Part shown: piece after piece, positions 1,078 to 53,133 of the stretch
Position numbering within the stretch: the first letter of the stretch is position 1
How the letters are laid out: every line of letters starts with the position of its first letter
Assembly: GCA_963748825.1 (NCBI GenBank)
Contig: CAVVKN010000005.1
Location: forward strand, 1-64,000
Reading direction: 5' to 3'
DNA from: Methanotrichaceae archaeon
Lineage (GTDB): Archaea > Halobacteriota > Methanosarcinia > Methanotrichales > Methanotrichaceae
Length of the DNA stretch: 64,000 nucleotides
Translations under genes and position numbers: made by a program
The notes under the pieces: model-generated
What the model saw: only the letters and a program-made list of their open reading frames with translations
What the model was told of the DNA's origin: nothing
The model's database searches: none

Positions 1078-2548
<1,471 letters not shown>

Positions 2549-2669
2549 AACGTTATGGGTATGCACAAGCATACCCACCCGTAACCAGTTGGAAGCTGAA
2601 AATGTCGACCGAGACCAAAAAGAGAACCAATTAGCCAGCTATTCTGATTATTAGCTGGGGCTAGTACCC

Positions 2670-2742
2670 GGGCTTGTAGCTCAGCTGGTAGAGCGCCGCC
2701 TTTGCAAGGCGGAGGCCCTGGGTCCGAATCCCAGCAAGTCCA
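2670..2742 (+). tRNA. tRNA-Ala(TGC) in the ITS
   Basis: GGGCTTG/CAAGTCC acceptor stem, anticodon loop TTTGCAA, T-arm GGTCCGAATCC. Confidence 0.97.
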
Positions 2743-2865
2743 ATTACAATGCACACATTGAGGCAGACTCGATGTGGAAGGGCGAAGGTCCGTTCTTGAC
2801 GGAGCGGTCCGATGATGCCGTGCACAAGCTTTGCGACCAGACGCTCACTGAGTTTAGTGGGGCAT

Positions 2866-5760
<2,895 letters not shown>

Positions 5761-5810
5761 GCTCCACTAAACTCGGGCGAAATCTGGTCGCAAAGCTTAA
5801 GGCACTTAAC

Positions 5811-5869
5811 CCAAGACCCCGGGTTACGGCCCGGGGAGGCACTAAACCGGTTCGATTCCGGTACTTGGA
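5811..5869 (+). ncRNA. tRNA-like (mini-tRNA) structure in the 23S-5S spacer
   Basis: CCAAG/CTTGG closing stem, CCCCGGG/CCCGGGG hairpin and T-arm ACCGG-TTCGATT-CCGGT immediately 5' of the 5S. Confidence 0.6.
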
Positions 5870-5872
5870 ATC

Positions 5873-5999
5873 GAGCATGGCGGCCAGAGCGACAGGGAAA
5901 CTCCTGAACCCATTCCGAACTCAGAAGATAAGCCTGTCCACGTTCTGCACTGTACTCAGATGCGCGAGCTCTCGGGAACTGTAGATCGCTGCCGTGCTC
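5873..5999 (+). rRNA. rrf: 5S rRNA
   Basis: GAGCATGGCGGCC...CCCATTCCGAAC...GCTGCCGTGCTC; the termini pair. Confidence 0.95.
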
Positions 6000-7582: not shown

Positions 7583-7656
7583 TGAAACCCACATGAGCAC
7601 ATTGCTCATGCAAGAAAGATGAAAAATGGATATATTCGCTAAGCCATTTAATTGCT

Positions 7657-7801
7657 TGATATGGGCGGTGAAGGCAGTCCGCCGTTTAGGGGCGTAGACC
7701 TCGTTAGTGAAACTAGCCAAATCCTGCGGATGCAAGAATGCGTCTGTTGAACGCGAATGCGAATGAGCACCCTTTGAGGATTAAGTTATCCGCCCATATC
7801 A
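7657..7801 (+). ncRNA. putative bridge RNA of IS110 #1
   Basis: Closed by TGATATGGGCGG/CCGCCCATATCA. Loop segments CCGCCGTTT (7679-7687) and GTTAGTGAAAC (7703-7713) match the element's own right and left flanks; ATGCGAA (7757-7763) matches its right end. Confidence 0.82.
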
Positions 7802-7815
7802 GGACGGGAATAATC

Positions 7816-9066
7816 ATGGAACTGCAGAGGAATAAAGTTTGTGGCATTGACGTGCACAAACGATTTCTGATAGCAACAATCCTTTCCCGAGACGGGAAGA
7901 AGGATACTCAACGTTTTAGCGTTACCCTGGAAGATCTCTTAAAATTTAGAGATTGGGTTATCGAAAATGGATGTGAACAGGTAGCTATAGAATCAACTGG
8001 AATCTATTGGCATCCTGTACACTCTGTTCTAGAGGGAAAGATCGATTTAATTGTGGCGAATTCCTACAAGATTAAGCATACTCCAGGAAGAAAGACCGAT
8101 GTCAACGATTCCGAATGGATTGCTGAACTTTGTCTCAATGGAATGATTGAGCCTTCCAGGATCTTTCCTAAAGATGATCGAGAGCTGAGAAGGTTGACCA
8201 GAGCGAGAGAAGGCTATGTTAAGCAGATGACTCAGGAAAAGAACAAGATCCACCAATCTCTCGATTCTGCTTGCATCAAATTGGCTTCAGTTATCTCTGA
8301 TATATTTGGCAAGTCCGGTATGTATCTCTTGAATTGCGTTCTAGAAGGAAGAGATATTGATGAGATAATTGAAGGCATTCCATCTGGACGACTCAAGAAA
8401 AAGGCGGATCAAATTAAAGAGTCTATCAAAAGTCGTCTAGAAATCTCCCAGGTCATTTTGATTAGGGGTTCTCTGAGCTTGATGAGATCCATCCAGGAGA
8501 GGATAGATGAGCTGGATGGAGAGATTAGTGCCAGAATTCAGTATCGCAAGAACGATTTAGCCATTGCTATGTCCATTCCTGGGACAGGGTTCGTCTCTGC
8601 TACTGCCATTCTGGCGGAAATTGGCAACTACATTGATTTCAAAAAGCCAGAGCAGCTTGCCGCATGGTGTGGCCTTGTTCCTTCTTTATATCAGTCTGCA
8701 GAAAAGACTATCCTCGGAGGAATAACCAAACAAGGCTCCAAGCATATTCGAAGAATGTTGATTCAAGTCGCCTATGCCATATCGCGAACCAAAGATTCGA
8801 AACTAAAGAAATTCTTCTTGAGGATTCAGGCCAAGAAGGGATCTAAAGTAGCAGCGGTTGCTCTGGCAAGAAAGGTTCTTTGCATTCTTCACCATCTTCT
8901 CATAAATCAAGAAATGTATCTTGAAGACAGAAATAAGAAAAATATGCGTCAGAAGCCCTTAACGCCGCCGTCTCCCATTGAGATGTCGATCCAAGAGATG
9001 ATTGACTGCATCGTCCGGGCAGGTTATGTTGTTACGAAGAGCGAGAGCAGAGGAGGATTCGGTTAA
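7816..9066 (+). CDS. IS110-family DEDD recombinase/transposase
   Basis: GIDVHK, IESTG and KTDVND (DEDD) plus the C-terminal AAWCGLVP..QS..GGITKQG motif. The likely start is MELQRNK; the ORF-track extension runs through the ncRNA. Confidence 0.95.
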   Translation: MELQRNKVCGIDVHKRFLIATILSRDGKKDTQRFSVTLEDLLKFRDWVIENGCEQVAIESTGIYWHPVHSVLEGKIDLIVANSYKIKHTPGRKTDVNDSEWIAELCLNGMIEPSRIFPKDDRELRRLTRAREGYVKQMTQEKNKIHQSLDSACIKLASVISDIFGKSGMYLLNCVLEGRDIDEIIEGIPSGRLKKKADQIKESIKSRLEISQVILIRGSLSLMRSIQERIDELDGEISARIQYRKNDLAIAMSIPGTGFVSATAILAEIGNYIDFKKPEQLAAWCGLVPSLYQSAEKTILGGITKQGSKHIRRMLIQVAYAISRTKDSKLKKFFLRIQAKKGSKVAAVALARKVLCILHHLLINQEMYLEDRNKKNMRQKPLTPPSPIEMSIQEMIDCIVRAGYVVTKSESRGGFG

Positions 9067-9090
9067 ATCAATTTTTCGGGTTTTTCATGC

Positions 9091-9235
9091 GAAACGGCGG
9101 CGGCTCACCCGCGCAGCAAGCTGCGGGGCATCCAAGGCGCCGCCGCATGAAGGTGGAACCAGGTTAAGCTGATCCCAACCTAAGCTGAATACGCATGCCC
9201 GTTATCCCCGATGCAAGCATCGGGGTATTACGATA
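9091..9235. repeat. palindromic MITE-like element (IS200/IS605-end-like hairpins)
   Basis: GGCGGCG...CGCCGCC encloses CCCGCGCAGCAAGCTGCGGGG; second hairpin CCCCGATGCAAGCATCGGGGTATT; related copies at 45978 and 53075. Confidence 0.65.
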
Positions 9236-26966: not shown

Positions 26967-28236
26967 TTTTTTTTCTAATCTACAGAAGGTTCCTCGCTAT
27001 TTCAAGTGGGTAGATTGAACTGCAATTTTCCAAGTCTAAGATATATAATTAGTATGAGATTCTTCGTTGTTCTGAACCCTCTTGCACTGCTCTTTGCAGA
27101 TTGAACCATGCTGTTTATTCCTTCAAGCACGCCGTTGGATATTTTGGTTTCAGCATAATTTATTATTTCGCTCCAATGTGACTTTATTGTTTTGGCAGCA
27201 TCAATAATAGGTTCTATTTGGCTGTGTGTTGCCCAATAATACCATTTTTTGAGGAAATCCTCCGCAAGGAGCTTATCATTAAATGTCCAAAAGTCTTTCA
27301 GACTAAGCTTGAAATTGTATGCTTTGGATGTCATCAAATTCATATCTTTGAGAGAGCCCAGCTTCTCTTTTTCAGCCAATGAAAGATCATTTGGATTCTT
27401 AAGCCACATATATCGAGTATTTTTTAATTCTGCATTGTGGTGCTGCTCCTCGCGACGTACTTTATCCACTGCCTCATTTACCATCTTCATAACGTGGAAT
27501 TTATCAAAAGTAAGAGACGATCCAGGAAACTGTTCCGCTATTCCTGATATGAATGCAGGAGAAATATCCGAACAGAACATCTCAATATTTTCCGATGCTC
27601 CATTATGATCCTCAAGGTCTTTTTTAAATGAGCTGATAACACTCGCATCTTTGCCCTCGCATACGTATAGAACTTTATTATTGTCGAAATCAACGAATAG
27701 CGACACATATTTATGAAATTATGCACATGAGGTTTCATCTACGCCTACTATTTTTACTTGAGAATGATCTTCTTTAGATCTAGATTCAGGAATATAATAC
27801 GACAATACCCTCCAGATCCTTGTATCATGCTCACCGATAATCTCAGCTACGGCACTAATTGACATATTCTGGGCAAAAAGAAGTATCAGTGCATCCATTA
27901 GCAATGTGAAACCTGTGCTCTTCCTAGCCCATGGAACATCAATCAATCTGATTGAACCACATTTCTCGCAAATTGTGCGTGGCACTCTGGCATGAATATA
28001 TGCCTTAAATTGGAAAAAATTAAGGTGCCGCCATACTTTTTCCTTTGTATCATGAATGCAGTTGTTTGGATTTTTGCAATTTAAACATTCAAATCTACTT
28101 CCTGGGATAAAATCGATATGAATATCCAGTTGCTTTTTAGCACTGCTGAATTCTATCGACTTGATATACCAAGGATCTTGAAGATTCAATGCAAGTTTCC
28201 CATGGAAAACCACATAAATCAAAAACAGGAGGCGAT

Positions 28237-29556
28237 CTATTCACCACCCCCGGATGGCCTATTATTGCCGGCTTTTGCCATAGAAATGGCTCCAAGCTCA
28301 CGCATAAGTGCATTCTTCCTACTGCCCTCCTTCAGATGATAAAAGGCATCCACAATTGCAGCGACCCTATCCGTTAAATGCTCTTCCTTAAATGAAGGTG
28401 CCTGGCAGGACTTATCCTGGCTCGATCTACTCTTCCTGCATTCATCTTCTTGATACAACTCCTGGTTTATAAGAAGATGATAAATGAGACAGATGAGTTT
28501 CCTAGCAACGGCGATGATCGCTACGTTACGCTCCTTCTTTTTAATCAATCTCTTGAAGAATCTGGACAGCGCCGTCTTATTCATATTTGATATGGTCTGG
28601 GCTGCTTGGACAAGTATAACTCTGATATGCTTGGAACCCTTCTTTGTAATTCCACATTTTTTCTTCTTGCCTGCAGATTCGTTTTCTCCAGGATTGAGGC
28701 CACACCATTTTGCGATCTGGTTCGGAGTCTTAAAATCTCGGTAGTTTCCAATCTCCGACAGTATGACCGATGCAGATGTGAATCCAATTCCTGGGATCGA
28801 CATGACTATGGCCAGATCTTTGCTCTTTTGCTGAACCTTTTTCAGGACCTCAAGGCTTAGCTTCTCCATTTTGGATTCGAGATTGTCAAGGATTTCCAGA
28901 GCATCTTTTAAGAGCATTCTGTTTGTATCATTCAGACCATTTTCGAGTGCTGATCTAATCAGGTCTTGCTTCTTCCTTATCTTTCCGGAGGGTATGCCTT
29001 TCAAGATCTCTTCGATGGGCTTCTCTTCAGCCAGACAGTCCAGGATGTATCTGCCGGACTTGCAGAAAATATCGTCCATGGTAGAACTGAGCTTAACGCC
29101 ACTTGATGATAGATATTTATGAATCCGATTCCGGAACTGAGTTCGTGTCTTGACATATCCGGACCTGGCTCGCGTCATCATCCTAAGGTCTCGGTCATCA
29201 TCGGTAAATACGCGATACCTTTTGATTTGACCGTTCAAGCAAAGGGTTGCGATTCGGTTTGAGTCTTTAGAGTCGGATTTGTCATTTGGAATGGTTTTTA
29301 TCTGCAACGGATTGGCTACAATTGTATCTATGGTTTTGCTCAGGGCATCATAAATCGGCATCCAATAGACGCCAGTAGCTTCAAATGCCACTTGTTCGCA
29401 TTTGTTGGCAACCAGCCAGTTTCGGAATCTCTTAAGCTCGGCTTTTGTTGTACCAAAATTCTCTCGAATTGGCAGCACATCATCGCCAGTTACTGTGGCA
29501 ACGATCAAATCTTTATGGACATCTGCTCCGCAAACTCTATCTCTTCGTCTTTTCAT
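28237..29556 (-). CDS. IS110-family DEDD recombinase/transposase
   Basis: GADVHK, FEATG, KSDSKD and KWCGLNPGENESAG motifs. Confidence 0.95.
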   Translation of the reverse strand: MKRRRDRVCGADVHKDLIVATVTGDDVLPIRENFGTTKAELKRFRNWLVANKCEQVAFEATGVYWMPIYDALSKTIDTIVANPLQIKTIPNDKSDSKDSNRIATLCLNGQIKRYRVFTDDDRDLRMMTRARSGYVKTRTQFRNRIHKYLSSSGVKLSSTMDDIFCKSGRYILDCLAEEKPIEEILKGIPSGKIRKKQDLIRSALENGLNDTNRMLLKDALEILDNLESKMEKLSLEVLKKVQQKSKDLAIVMSIPGIGFTSASVILSEIGNYRDFKTPNQIAKWCGLNPGENESAGKKKKCGITKKGSKHIRVILVQAAQTISNMNKTALSRFFKRLIKKKERNVAIIAVARKLICLIYHLLINQELYQEDECRKSRSSQDKSCQAPSFKEEHLTDRVAAIVDAFYHLKEGSRKNALMRELGAISMAKAGNNRPSGGGE

Positions 29557-29567
29557 ATGCGTTTCTG

Positions 29568-29716
29568 CCTGGTATGGGCAGATGATCTTTCCCTGATGTG
29601 GGATAATTTCCCATGCGCGTTCTAAGACGCAGTCCCGTATTCGGGGGGATCTTGGCCTGTTTCAATCACGGGATCAAGCGTCCCATAAACTTGCCGGCCT
29701 TCACTGCCCATATCCG
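29568..29716 (-). ncRNA. putative bridge RNA of IS110 #2
   Basis: Same scaffold as 7657-7801. Loop segments GCAAGTTT, GTGATTGAAAC and CATGGGAAA match its own flanks and right end. Confidence 0.82.
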
Positions 29717-30061
29717 GCTTAACGTGAACGGATAACAATATGTGGTTTTCCATCCGTCACGTGTGAGCCTCTGCCTGGGGCGCATGGTCGTTTGAATAGG
29801 TCTTCCTGCGAGAGAGTCACGGATAATAATTCAAGAAATGACATTATTAAACCTTACCCCAGGAAGTAAAAATCCTCCCGGATGCCAAACCAGCCTATCC
29901 GGGCTGGATGCCATCCTGCTTGCTGATTTCTTGATTCCTGTCCTCGGATTTCATTTAATAGTAACTTGAGGTTAGCCACCTGAAACAGCGAAGAGCCATA
30001 TCAATTTTGTAACGGCGAACATGGCAATAGCTCAAAATCGTTATCAGCAAAAATAAATTTA

Positions 30062-53041: not shown

Positions 53042-53133
53042 GTGATGTCCTCATGATCTTCGAGAAATATGGATTGAAACGGCGGCGCGCACCCACGCAG
53101 CCTGCAACTTGGAAGTTATTACCGGTAATCAAC

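Follow-up and report, generated by a model that had tools for sequence, protein, structure and literature searches.

What brought an IS110-family element into the reading frame of an ISL3 transposase gene, and does the element carry an RNA that selects such sites? The question is raised by a 64,000-nucleotide (nt) stretch of DNA from a Methanotrichaceae archaeon (NCBI assembly GCA_963748825.1, contig CAVVKN010000005.1, positions 1–64,000; hereafter the window), which contains two IS110-family insertion sequences (IS), element 1 (W1) and element 2 (W2). W2 is, with a probability that we put at roughly 85%, an intact and recently active IS110-family element of a Methanothrix-like archaeal clade that moves by bridge-RNA-guided recombination like IS621. 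The bridge-RNA mechanism is already published (IS621, 2024; PMC11208160), so that this reading is right and not new: guide–target covariation on a bridge-RNA scaffold has been established since 2024, which makes W2 a clean natural example rather than a discovery. Its less ordinary features are a reversed guide order, an AA core and a left guide equal to the 3′ end of CRISPR repeats, and homing to such repeats deserves follow-up.

The element and the gene that it interrupts

W2 is an intact element of 1595 bp at 28199–29793 on the minus strand, one of the two bordering AAAC copies being counted. The insertion is made up as follows (window coordinates).

28199–29793, minus strand: element W2, with ends supported by empty sites in orthologues, by a contig from which 1595 bases are missing and by copies of 93% identity that lie in other surroundings.
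29794–29800, minus strand: left target arm CCTATTC (ISL3 codons L-F), of which TTC is kept in the orthologues L082 and L083.
29790–29793, minus strand: AAAC at the left junction, with the putative crossover core AA at 29793–29792 as deduced from junction overlaps.
28190–28198, minus strand: second AAAC (28198–28195) and right target arm TTGCA (28194–28190), as read from the sequence.
28199–28236, minus strand: short right end of 38 nt, terminating in GTGGTTTTCCATGGG, likewise read from the sequence.
28237–29556, minus strand: recombinase gene, 439 amino acids (aa), with the Pfam domains DEDD_Tnp_IS110 and Transposase_20.
27002–28198, minus strand: the ISL3 transposase gene downstream of the interruption, with an in-frame TAA at 27719–27721 as well.

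On the minus strand the left junction reads ...GAAGACCTATTC AAAC GACCATG... and the right junction ...CCATGGG AAAC TTGCATTGAAT..., the element ending in CATGGG (28204–28199). An initial annotation, made by reading the window alone, had proposed that removal of 28199–29793 restores the ISL3 frame at a site CCTATTC-AAAC-TTGCA, and this proposal holds. Excision of the 1595 nt gives GAAGACCTATTCAAACTTGCATTGAAT, which translates as EDLFKLALN, and the uninterrupted orthologues L082 and L083 read SQEDLFKLALNLQ; these were the two matches of a degenerate empty-site pattern scanned over seven loci, the other five lacking a pattern match. A Logan contig from run X4 agrees, joining 28194 to 29790 with 1595 bases skipped and four letters, the AAAC copy, ambiguous. 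This contig derives from a related ISL3 copy and not from this strain, because its depth is 2.1 and its likeness to the window ∼90%. A second copy of the window ISL3, which would serve as a paralogous empty site, was looked for in the same genome and none was found, ISL3 being single-copy there.

The N-terminal domains of ISL3 lie in the open reading frame (ORF) 27719–28222 and the DDE domain in the ORF 27002–27706. The N-terminal part has a relative in 48 of 105 genomes of the family, with best open frames of 408–418 aa. The ISL3 copy is broken twice, since in addition to the IS110 insertion the in-frame TAA at 27719–27721 (minus strand) separates its N-terminal and DDE parts, where the orthologues keep a single open frame of 408–418 aa.

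The W2 recombinase matches PF01548 (DEDD_Tnp_IS110, 1.9e-21) and PF02371 (Transposase_20, 1.6e-25) and is 46% identical (186/406 residues) to the recombinase of W1. Its similarity to the IS621 transposase chain 8wt6_A is distant but significant (E 1.1e-8, in the C-terminal domain), and a distant significant similarity extends to an ISCro4 chain. The candidate catalytic residues D12, E59 and D95/D98 (DEDD) and S294 (Tnp-domain serine) are the same in both window proteins, with roles as in the IS621 paper; S294 is aligned with the serine of the ESG motif in the IS621 chain. In a plasmid search for relatives of the recombinase, the matches were mostly unnamed entries of the type 'IS110 family transposase'.

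A predicted bridge RNA upstream of the recombinase gene

The noncoding ends of W2 are unequal (233 nt on the left, 38 nt on the right), and the predicted RNA lies in the longer one, upstream of the recombinase gene.

29571–29714, minus strand: predicted bridge RNA, ∼144 nt, with the closing helix P1 formed by 29714–29704 and 29581–29571.
29616–29631, minus strand: conserved hairpin P5 (UGCGUC..GAACGCG; alignment columns 124–127/135–138).
29687–29695, minus strand: right target guide GGCAAGUUU, in the target loop's 5′ strand; pairs with top strand AAACTTGC(A), with an anchored run of 8, core included.
29659–29669, minus strand: left target guide GUGAUUGAAAC, in the 3′ strand of that loop, with the sense of the left flank + AA + AC.
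29607–29615, minus strand: donor guide CAUGGGAAA, with the sense of the right end CATGGG + AA + A.

The fold was assessed on an alignment (A2) of the 163 nt upstream of the start codon in 26 elements, namely the two in the window and 24 of 80 related loci, picked as one or a few per sequence type after exclusion of duplicates, truncated loci and bacterial loci without the scaffold. The nearest of the 80 loci, going by record titles, belong to Methanothrix and Methanotrichaceae assemblies. With RNAalifold the alignment yields P1, the hairpin P5 and, for the first internal loop, a closing helix P2 and an inner hairpin P3, in total 22 pairs, 12 of which have at least one sequence changed on both sides. 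P5 is paired in 26/26 sequences at three of its four pairs. The suggestion that the RNAs of W2 and W1 share scaffold motifs is thus borne out, the shared helices and motifs falling into one alignment of all 26 sequences; so is the compensatory G-C to A-U change noticed in the closing stem, where the pair at columns 45/183 is AU in 20/26 sequences and GC in 5/26. Compensatory changes in the helices around the guide segments argue for selection on the RNA fold. The W2 RNA has a minimum free energy (MFE) of −54.4 kcal/mol (z −3.53; 0/200 shuffles as stable) and the W1 RNA one of −49.5 (z −2.63; 2/200 shuffles as stable). The Bryobacterales relatives L055–L061 and L075 have variable flanks and a different upstream RNA.

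A local hairpin after the donor guide (P6) was considered and rejected, as the alignment register shifts between groups at this point. In the MFE folds of W2 and L044, two of four RNAs folded, the former P6 stretch tentatively enters a long-range helix with the segment just 3′ of P2.

A 12-bp inverted repeat (ATGGAAAACCAC) relates an internal site of the left end, 29742–29753 on the minus strand, to the right-end terminus, 28202–28213 on the plus strand. At the place of 29742–29753 an ATGAAAA-like motif is conserved across the family, ∼60 nt ahead of the RNA. The motif or the 12-bp repeat could serve the recombinase as a site or belong to an archaeal promoter.

Guide segments covary with target and donor

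Three segments of the RNA had been matched to DNA in the initial annotation, and all three matches were recovered: GCAAGTTT (29694–29687) complements AAACTTGC in 8/8 positions, GTGATTGAAAC (29669–29659) agrees with the left flank in 7 of its last 8 letters, and CATGGGAAA (29615–29607) agrees with the element's own right end in 9/9. The matching segments occupy the same alignment columns in W2, W1 and their relatives. The left guide has the same sense as the left flank + AAAC for 5–11 letters in nearly all 26 sequences. The right guide is the reverse complement of AA + right flank, with an anchored run of 9 in W1, L071 and L027, of 8 in L026 and W2 and of 7 in L012, and it tracks the right flank in W1, L026, L071, L027, L012, L038 and W2. 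The donor segment, ATGGG, ATGCG or ATAGG (+ AA, after P5), tracks a right end of CATGGG, CATGCG or CATAGG in 12 of 13 representatives; the exception is L045, the right end of which may be miscalled.

These matches are specific to each element's own site. Among 15 representatives of the 26 sequences, one per target class, the left guide agrees with its own flank in 5.27/8 positions versus 2.46/8 with foreign flanks, and among the 13 representatives with a right junction the anchored run of the right guide is 6.54 on its own flank versus 3.15 on foreign ones; 0/100,000 permutations reached the observed value for the left guide and the right guide alike, figures that overstate independence because the loci are kin. 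The claim that guides covary with target and donor on one scaffold therefore stands for the left, right and donor segments, each of which tracks its flank or right end. Matches of 8–11 nt in a 230-nt noncoding region are short, and an accidental origin might be entertained on that ground; the recurrence of the segments in the same alignment columns of 26 sequences with different flanks and the permutation result leave chance with next to no probability.

A second alternative is that the segments act as DNA, short homologies between left end and target driving recombination without a guide RNA. Insertions into the left-guide-coding DNA of another copy, in a tandem pair on contig C12 (described below) and in L106, do show that this DNA resembles the target. 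The helices around the segments nevertheless keep their pairing through compensatory changes, one segment is complementary and the other same-sense as in the solved IS621 RNA–DNA pairing scheme, and the related IS621 requires RNA in vitro, which together make recombination on DNA homology very improbable, if less so than chance.

The 3′ half of P5 was also tried as a guide for the left end of the element and set aside, its matches to ACGC-type ends showing no covariation.

Crossover core, guide order and comparison with known systems

The overlaps at the junctions vary: L071 shares AA only, group E GGAA and L012 AAA, and the donor is conserved as CATNGG-AAAC-NNNCATG. Given these overlaps and the conserved donor, a fixed 2-nt crossover must equal AA. 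We infer from these junctions that AA (TT on the other strand) is the crossover core, assuming a crossover position that is fixed across groups. In L105 a right end, AAAC and a left end abut, representing either a tandem pair or an assembled circle.

In the parts of the IS621 papers that describe the bridge RNA (PMC11208158, PMC11208160), the target loop consists of a stem, the left target guide (LTG, nt 50–58), a stem-loop, the right target guide (RTG, 77–80) and a handshake guide (81–82), and the core is CT, the second T being the near-invariant position. W2 shares with IS621, as far as these parts describe it, a recombinase with DEDD and Tnp domains, an RNA encoded in a long left end upstream of the gene, two guides on opposite target strands that overlap at the core, a donor guide for the right end and core, handshake-like extensions after the core and repeated sequences as targets. 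It differs in several respects. In each of the 26 aligned RNAs the loop hairpin has the right guide on its 5′ side and the left guide on its 3′ side, whereas IS621 is described with the left guide 5′ and the right guide 3′; the core is AA in the W2 clade and CT in IS621; the donor region of W2 is a multi-branch loop and that of IS621 a simple internal loop; and the W2 clade targets CRISPR repeats, IS621 repetitive extragenic palindromic (REP) elements. The proteins are alike only distantly (E 1.1e-8, C-terminal domain), and the host of W2 is archaeal.

The letters next to the core offer a way of relating the two guide orders. The AC that follows the core in the left-guide strand agrees with the left end of the element and not with the target, as seen where targets differ from AC (TG in group E, AG in group B and L009, AA in L012, GC in L071), and the letter after the core in the donor guide agrees with the target in groups E, F and H. 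By analogy, the AC letters may act like the handshake guides of IS621. Because AC matches the element and the donor-guide letter matches the target, we infer that the guide order of the clade would be equivalent to the geometry of IS621 on DNA read the other way round, with TT as its core.

The same order recalls the seekRNAs of the IS1111 group. As set out in the relevant part of Siddiquee et al. (2024; PMC11187229), IS1111 seekRNAs carry the complement of the top strand first, and the IS110-type ISEc21 the reverse. To the extent covered there, the guide order of the W2 clade is IS1111-like, as may be the short inverted repeats by its ends (CATGGG/CCCATG); these are 6 bp long and flank the core, the IS1111 criterion being subterminal inverted repeats of 7–17 bp. 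In contrast to the IS1111 seekRNA, described as encoded downstream of the transposase gene, the W2 RNA lies upstream, in an IS110-like position. A reversed guide order together with an RNA gene placed upstream would set a third arrangement apart from those of the IS110 and IS1111 groups. The reversed order bears on the origin of the IS110 and IS1111 arrangements and, with the AA core in a system now documented in methanogenic archaea, widens the design space for programmable recombinases.

CRISPR repeats as sites of insertion

The left guide of the clade, GAUUGAAAC, equals the 3′ end of CRISPR repeats. The genome that holds the window (G000) contains three further full W2-type copies, 93% identical, together with a 5′-truncated copy and a left-end fragment. 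The full and truncated copies lie outside the window in a CRISPR array.

G000 C12:108656–118905: type I-B CRISPR array of 55 repeats.
G000 C12:110199–111793, 112458–114052 and 114199–115793: full W2-type copies, co-oriented with the array and near its trailer end.
G000 C12:108734–110199: 5′-truncated W2-type copy, co-oriented with the array.

The 55 repeats of the array are separated by spacers of 34–39 nt, and the copies are seated in repeats near the trailer. A complete type I-B operon (cas1, cas4, cas8b, cas7, cas5, cas3, cas6b) lies upstream on the same strand. In the three full copies the left flank is the last part of a 37-nt repeat ending GGATTG-AAAC and the right flank is a spacer; the spacers after inserted copies are of normal length. 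Comparison of the array spacers with the genome and the elements gave no match except one 18-nt chance hit in C7.

A census was made of W2-type left junctions with at least 40 nt of flank, drawn from three genome stretches, 12 genome-contig loci and 33 metagenome loci; identical flanks were counted once (L103 = L104, L114 = L120), and L102 and L110 were dropped for short flanks. Among 42 distinct left junctions, 27 fall at the same point of CRISPR repeats belonging to four families (16, 6, 4 and 1 junctions, L107 having been placed by hand in the second), and 25 of these 27 have further repeat copies in the same locus. One of the remainder is in the left-guide-coding DNA of another copy and 14 are elsewhere. 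Over all 42 junctions the flank consensus is A (37), T (37), T (42) and G (40) at positions −4 to −1, followed by AAAC, with no conservation on the right side beyond AC. The flank consensus GATTG-AAAC-TTGC proposed in the initial annotation accordingly survives in its left part, ATTG-AAAC being near-invariant, and falls in its right part, nothing to the right of AC being conserved. Going by how the repeats are oriented, all elements face the way in which the array is transcribed. The word GATTGAAAC occurs 81 times in this genome on both strands, the array holding 55 repeats. In runs X1, X2 and X4, contigs with a likeness of at least 99% run along the element and depart from the window at 28195 and 29797, which implies near-identical copies elsewhere in other samples, as these contigs leave the window at the element ends; the loose end from X1 turns out, on the opposite strand, to be a repeat from the third CRISPR family.

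Since the left guide equals the 3′ end of CRISPR repeats, the elements may home to repeat–spacer junctions. We put forward tentatively, at slightly less than even odds, that the left guide of the clade is tuned to an 8-nt tag, ATTGAAAC, which ends the CRISPR repeats of several families, and that RNA-guided homing takes the elements to repeat–spacer junctions, in every case oriented as the array is transcribed. CRISPR arrays would then be the main habitat of the clade, and with each insertion one spacer would be put out of use and the array divided. It can further be speculated that the leader promoter of the array, perhaps with Cas6 cutting just upstream, could supply the bridge RNA and the recombinase transcript.

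A mobile element with an RNA guide that reads a conserved CRISPR-repeat end has its nearest hint in the literature in Thermus thermophilus. The passage of PMC6352166 on the IS110-family elements IS1000A/B reports that a 32-bp end of the catalogued sequence is identical to the HB8 and HB27 CRISPR repeats; on our own reading of this description, they too would be seated in CRISPR repeats. They differ from W2 in their bacterial host and unrelated repeat, and in that passage the authors read no targeting into the identity and named no guide RNA. In Sulfolobus the CRISPR-repeat-binding protein Cbp1 is described, in the part of that literature available to us, as binding copies of the IS110-family ISC1229, a possibly related clue. 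None of the full texts searched was found to state that CRISPR repeats are targets of an IS110 bridge RNA, supplements being outside the scope of this search; the supplementary tables of Durrant et al. may list archaeal or CRISPR-repeat targets.

Several minor observations concern these copies. The copies at C12:110199 and L106:240 are inserted in another copy exactly 3′ of the left-guide-coding DNA (GATTGAAAC/AGGCC, the slash marking the junction), and the guide-coding DNA thus seems, from its sequence, to mimic the target and attract sister copies. The left-end fragment (G000 C23:222041–222361, 321 nt) comprises the RNA gene and first codons and is broken inside the recombinase gene, its left flank ending TATTA/AAAC. 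The start coordinates 28199 in the window and 110199 and 114199 on C12 differ by exactly 82,000 and 4,000; the latter distance is made up of two copies of 1595 nt together with intervening repeat–spacer units of 146 and 664 nt, and the spacing is taken as coincidence.

The window copy as a probable off-type insertion

W2 itself lies in a gene, and among the clade's 42 distinct left junctions only its own carries C in place of G at −1. The C mismatched the guide already at insertion, because TTC is conserved in the ISL3 orthologues L082 and L083; the earlier suggestion that this insertion tolerated a left-arm mismatch is upheld. In the permutation matrix the W2 left guide fits a CRISPR-repeat flank better (5/8) than its own flank (3/8). 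The ISL3 site matches the extended right guide (TTGC) over eight letters, and L003 shows a similar extended right match. These comparisons suggest that the insertion was an off-type event, in which extra pairing in the right arm would have offset the mismatch in the left.

The alternative is natural reprogramming, the guides of W2 having evolved toward this ISL3 site or toward ISL3 elements generally, with the match adaptive. The initial annotation leaned this way in stating that the guides had switched to the site, and the 8/8 fit of the right guide to AAACTTGC speaks for it, as does the G of that guide (GGCAAG versus GACAAG, the commonest form in the clade), which betters the fit to ISL3. 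The claim of a switch was nevertheless abandoned. The left guide is the clade standard, which fits CRISPR-repeat ends and is mismatched to the ISL3 site right beside the core. The right guide GGCAAGTTT also occurs in L105 and L107, and its presence there at other sites means that this variant predates the ISL3 insertion. An ISL3 gene is hit at none of the 41 remaining distinct junctions, and this genome has no second ISL3 copy. Reprogramming is accordingly improbable, and the off-type event is preferred.

Such an event is of interest for off-target prediction, as extended right-arm pairing may compensate for a core-adjacent mismatch. A preprint (10.64898/2026.08.31.748434) states, in the part available, that half-bridge-RNA matching explains many off-target insertions of IS621; 'half' denotes there the donor- or target-binding half and not a target arm, and the preprint is cited as background, not as support.

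Two unoccupied sites resemble targets of W2. One, GATTCAAACTTGCC (G000 C6, minus strand, offset 163264 in the reverse complement), fits the W2 right guide over nine letters with the same C at −1; the other, GGATTGAAAC/GGCGGCG at ∼53071–53110 of the window (plus strand), is a copy of a REP-like repeat that fits the W2 left guide.

Proposed mechanism and points against it

The anatomy of the element, the conserved fold, the guide–flank covariation and the site statistics were observed directly. On this basis the 233-nt left end would encode an RNA closed by helix P1, with an internal loop (P2/P3) carrying the two target guides; the 3′ strand of this loop would continue for two letters (AC) that fit the left end of the element in handshake-like fashion, and a second, multi-branched region would carry the donor guide for the right end and core. 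Exchange would take place at the AA core. By analogy with IS621, the RNA is presumed to be made and bound by the recombinase, and the details of strand exchange are likewise modelled on that system. Elements of the clade may home to CRISPR repeat–spacer junctions through the left guide GAUUGAAAC, and the window copy would have landed in ISL3 despite the mismatch next to the core, with its 8-letter extended right-guide match.

Several points weigh against this account. The kinship of the loci and the assumption of a fixed crossover position have been mentioned with the permutation figures and the AA core. No guide for the left element end (right donor, RD) was found by a column-by-position covariation scan or by a two-sense 5-mer word scan. 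A search of the window against Rfam yielded nothing at the gathering threshold, and on 29540–29810 nothing matched even with E values up to 10. The only contigs from an RNA library (run X17; five, 90–99% alike), which come from relatives, extend over parts of the gene and over 22 nt of the 3′ part of the RNA; they may be DNA carry-over and cannot demonstrate transcription, and gaps in their cover carry no meaning. Finally, 14/42 junctions are not in recognisable CRISPR repeats.

Element 1 and a sister group

The comparator is placed as follows.

7589–9095, plus strand: element 1 (W1), 1507 bp, with its bridge RNA at ∼7659–7800.
7738–9066, plus strand: W1 recombinase gene, with a likely true start at 7816.

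W1 shares with W2 the scaffold (P1, P2, P3, P5), the AA core, AAAC at both junctions and a recombinase that is 46% identical, and differs in its guides (GTTAGTGAAAC, CCGCCGTTT) and in its target, the edge of a REP-like palindromic repeat. The left guide GTTAGTGAAAC and the W1 flank agree in 11/11 positions, and CCGCCGTTT, the right guide, complements AAACGGCGG. The repeat at the edge of which W1 sits is intergenic (window 9096–9150; GTGAAAC/GGCGGCG..CACCCGCGCAGCAAGCTGCGGGG..), and the genome holds many unoccupied REP-like copies that match the W1 guides (e.g. C14:10080, C17:48634 and C10:183774).

A second copy of W1 lies at G000 C18:141601–142946 on the minus strand, 99.9% identical over 1346 nt and without the first 161 nt, that is, without the left end and the target loop of the RNA. 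Its 60-nt left flank is identical to that in the window; either the flank with the end of the scpB gene is duplicated or this is an assembly repeat. In one Methanotrichaceae assembly, ten loci of a sister group (L012–L021, L035) lie in one repeated sequence (..CTTCTGGGGCTA/AAAC/TAATGGTTTTACTAGCGCGCTC..), and the guide variants TTTAATTTT and TTTATTTTT of this group accompany two right-flank variants. A ribosomal RNA operon at 1078–5997 of the window marks the DNA as archaeal.

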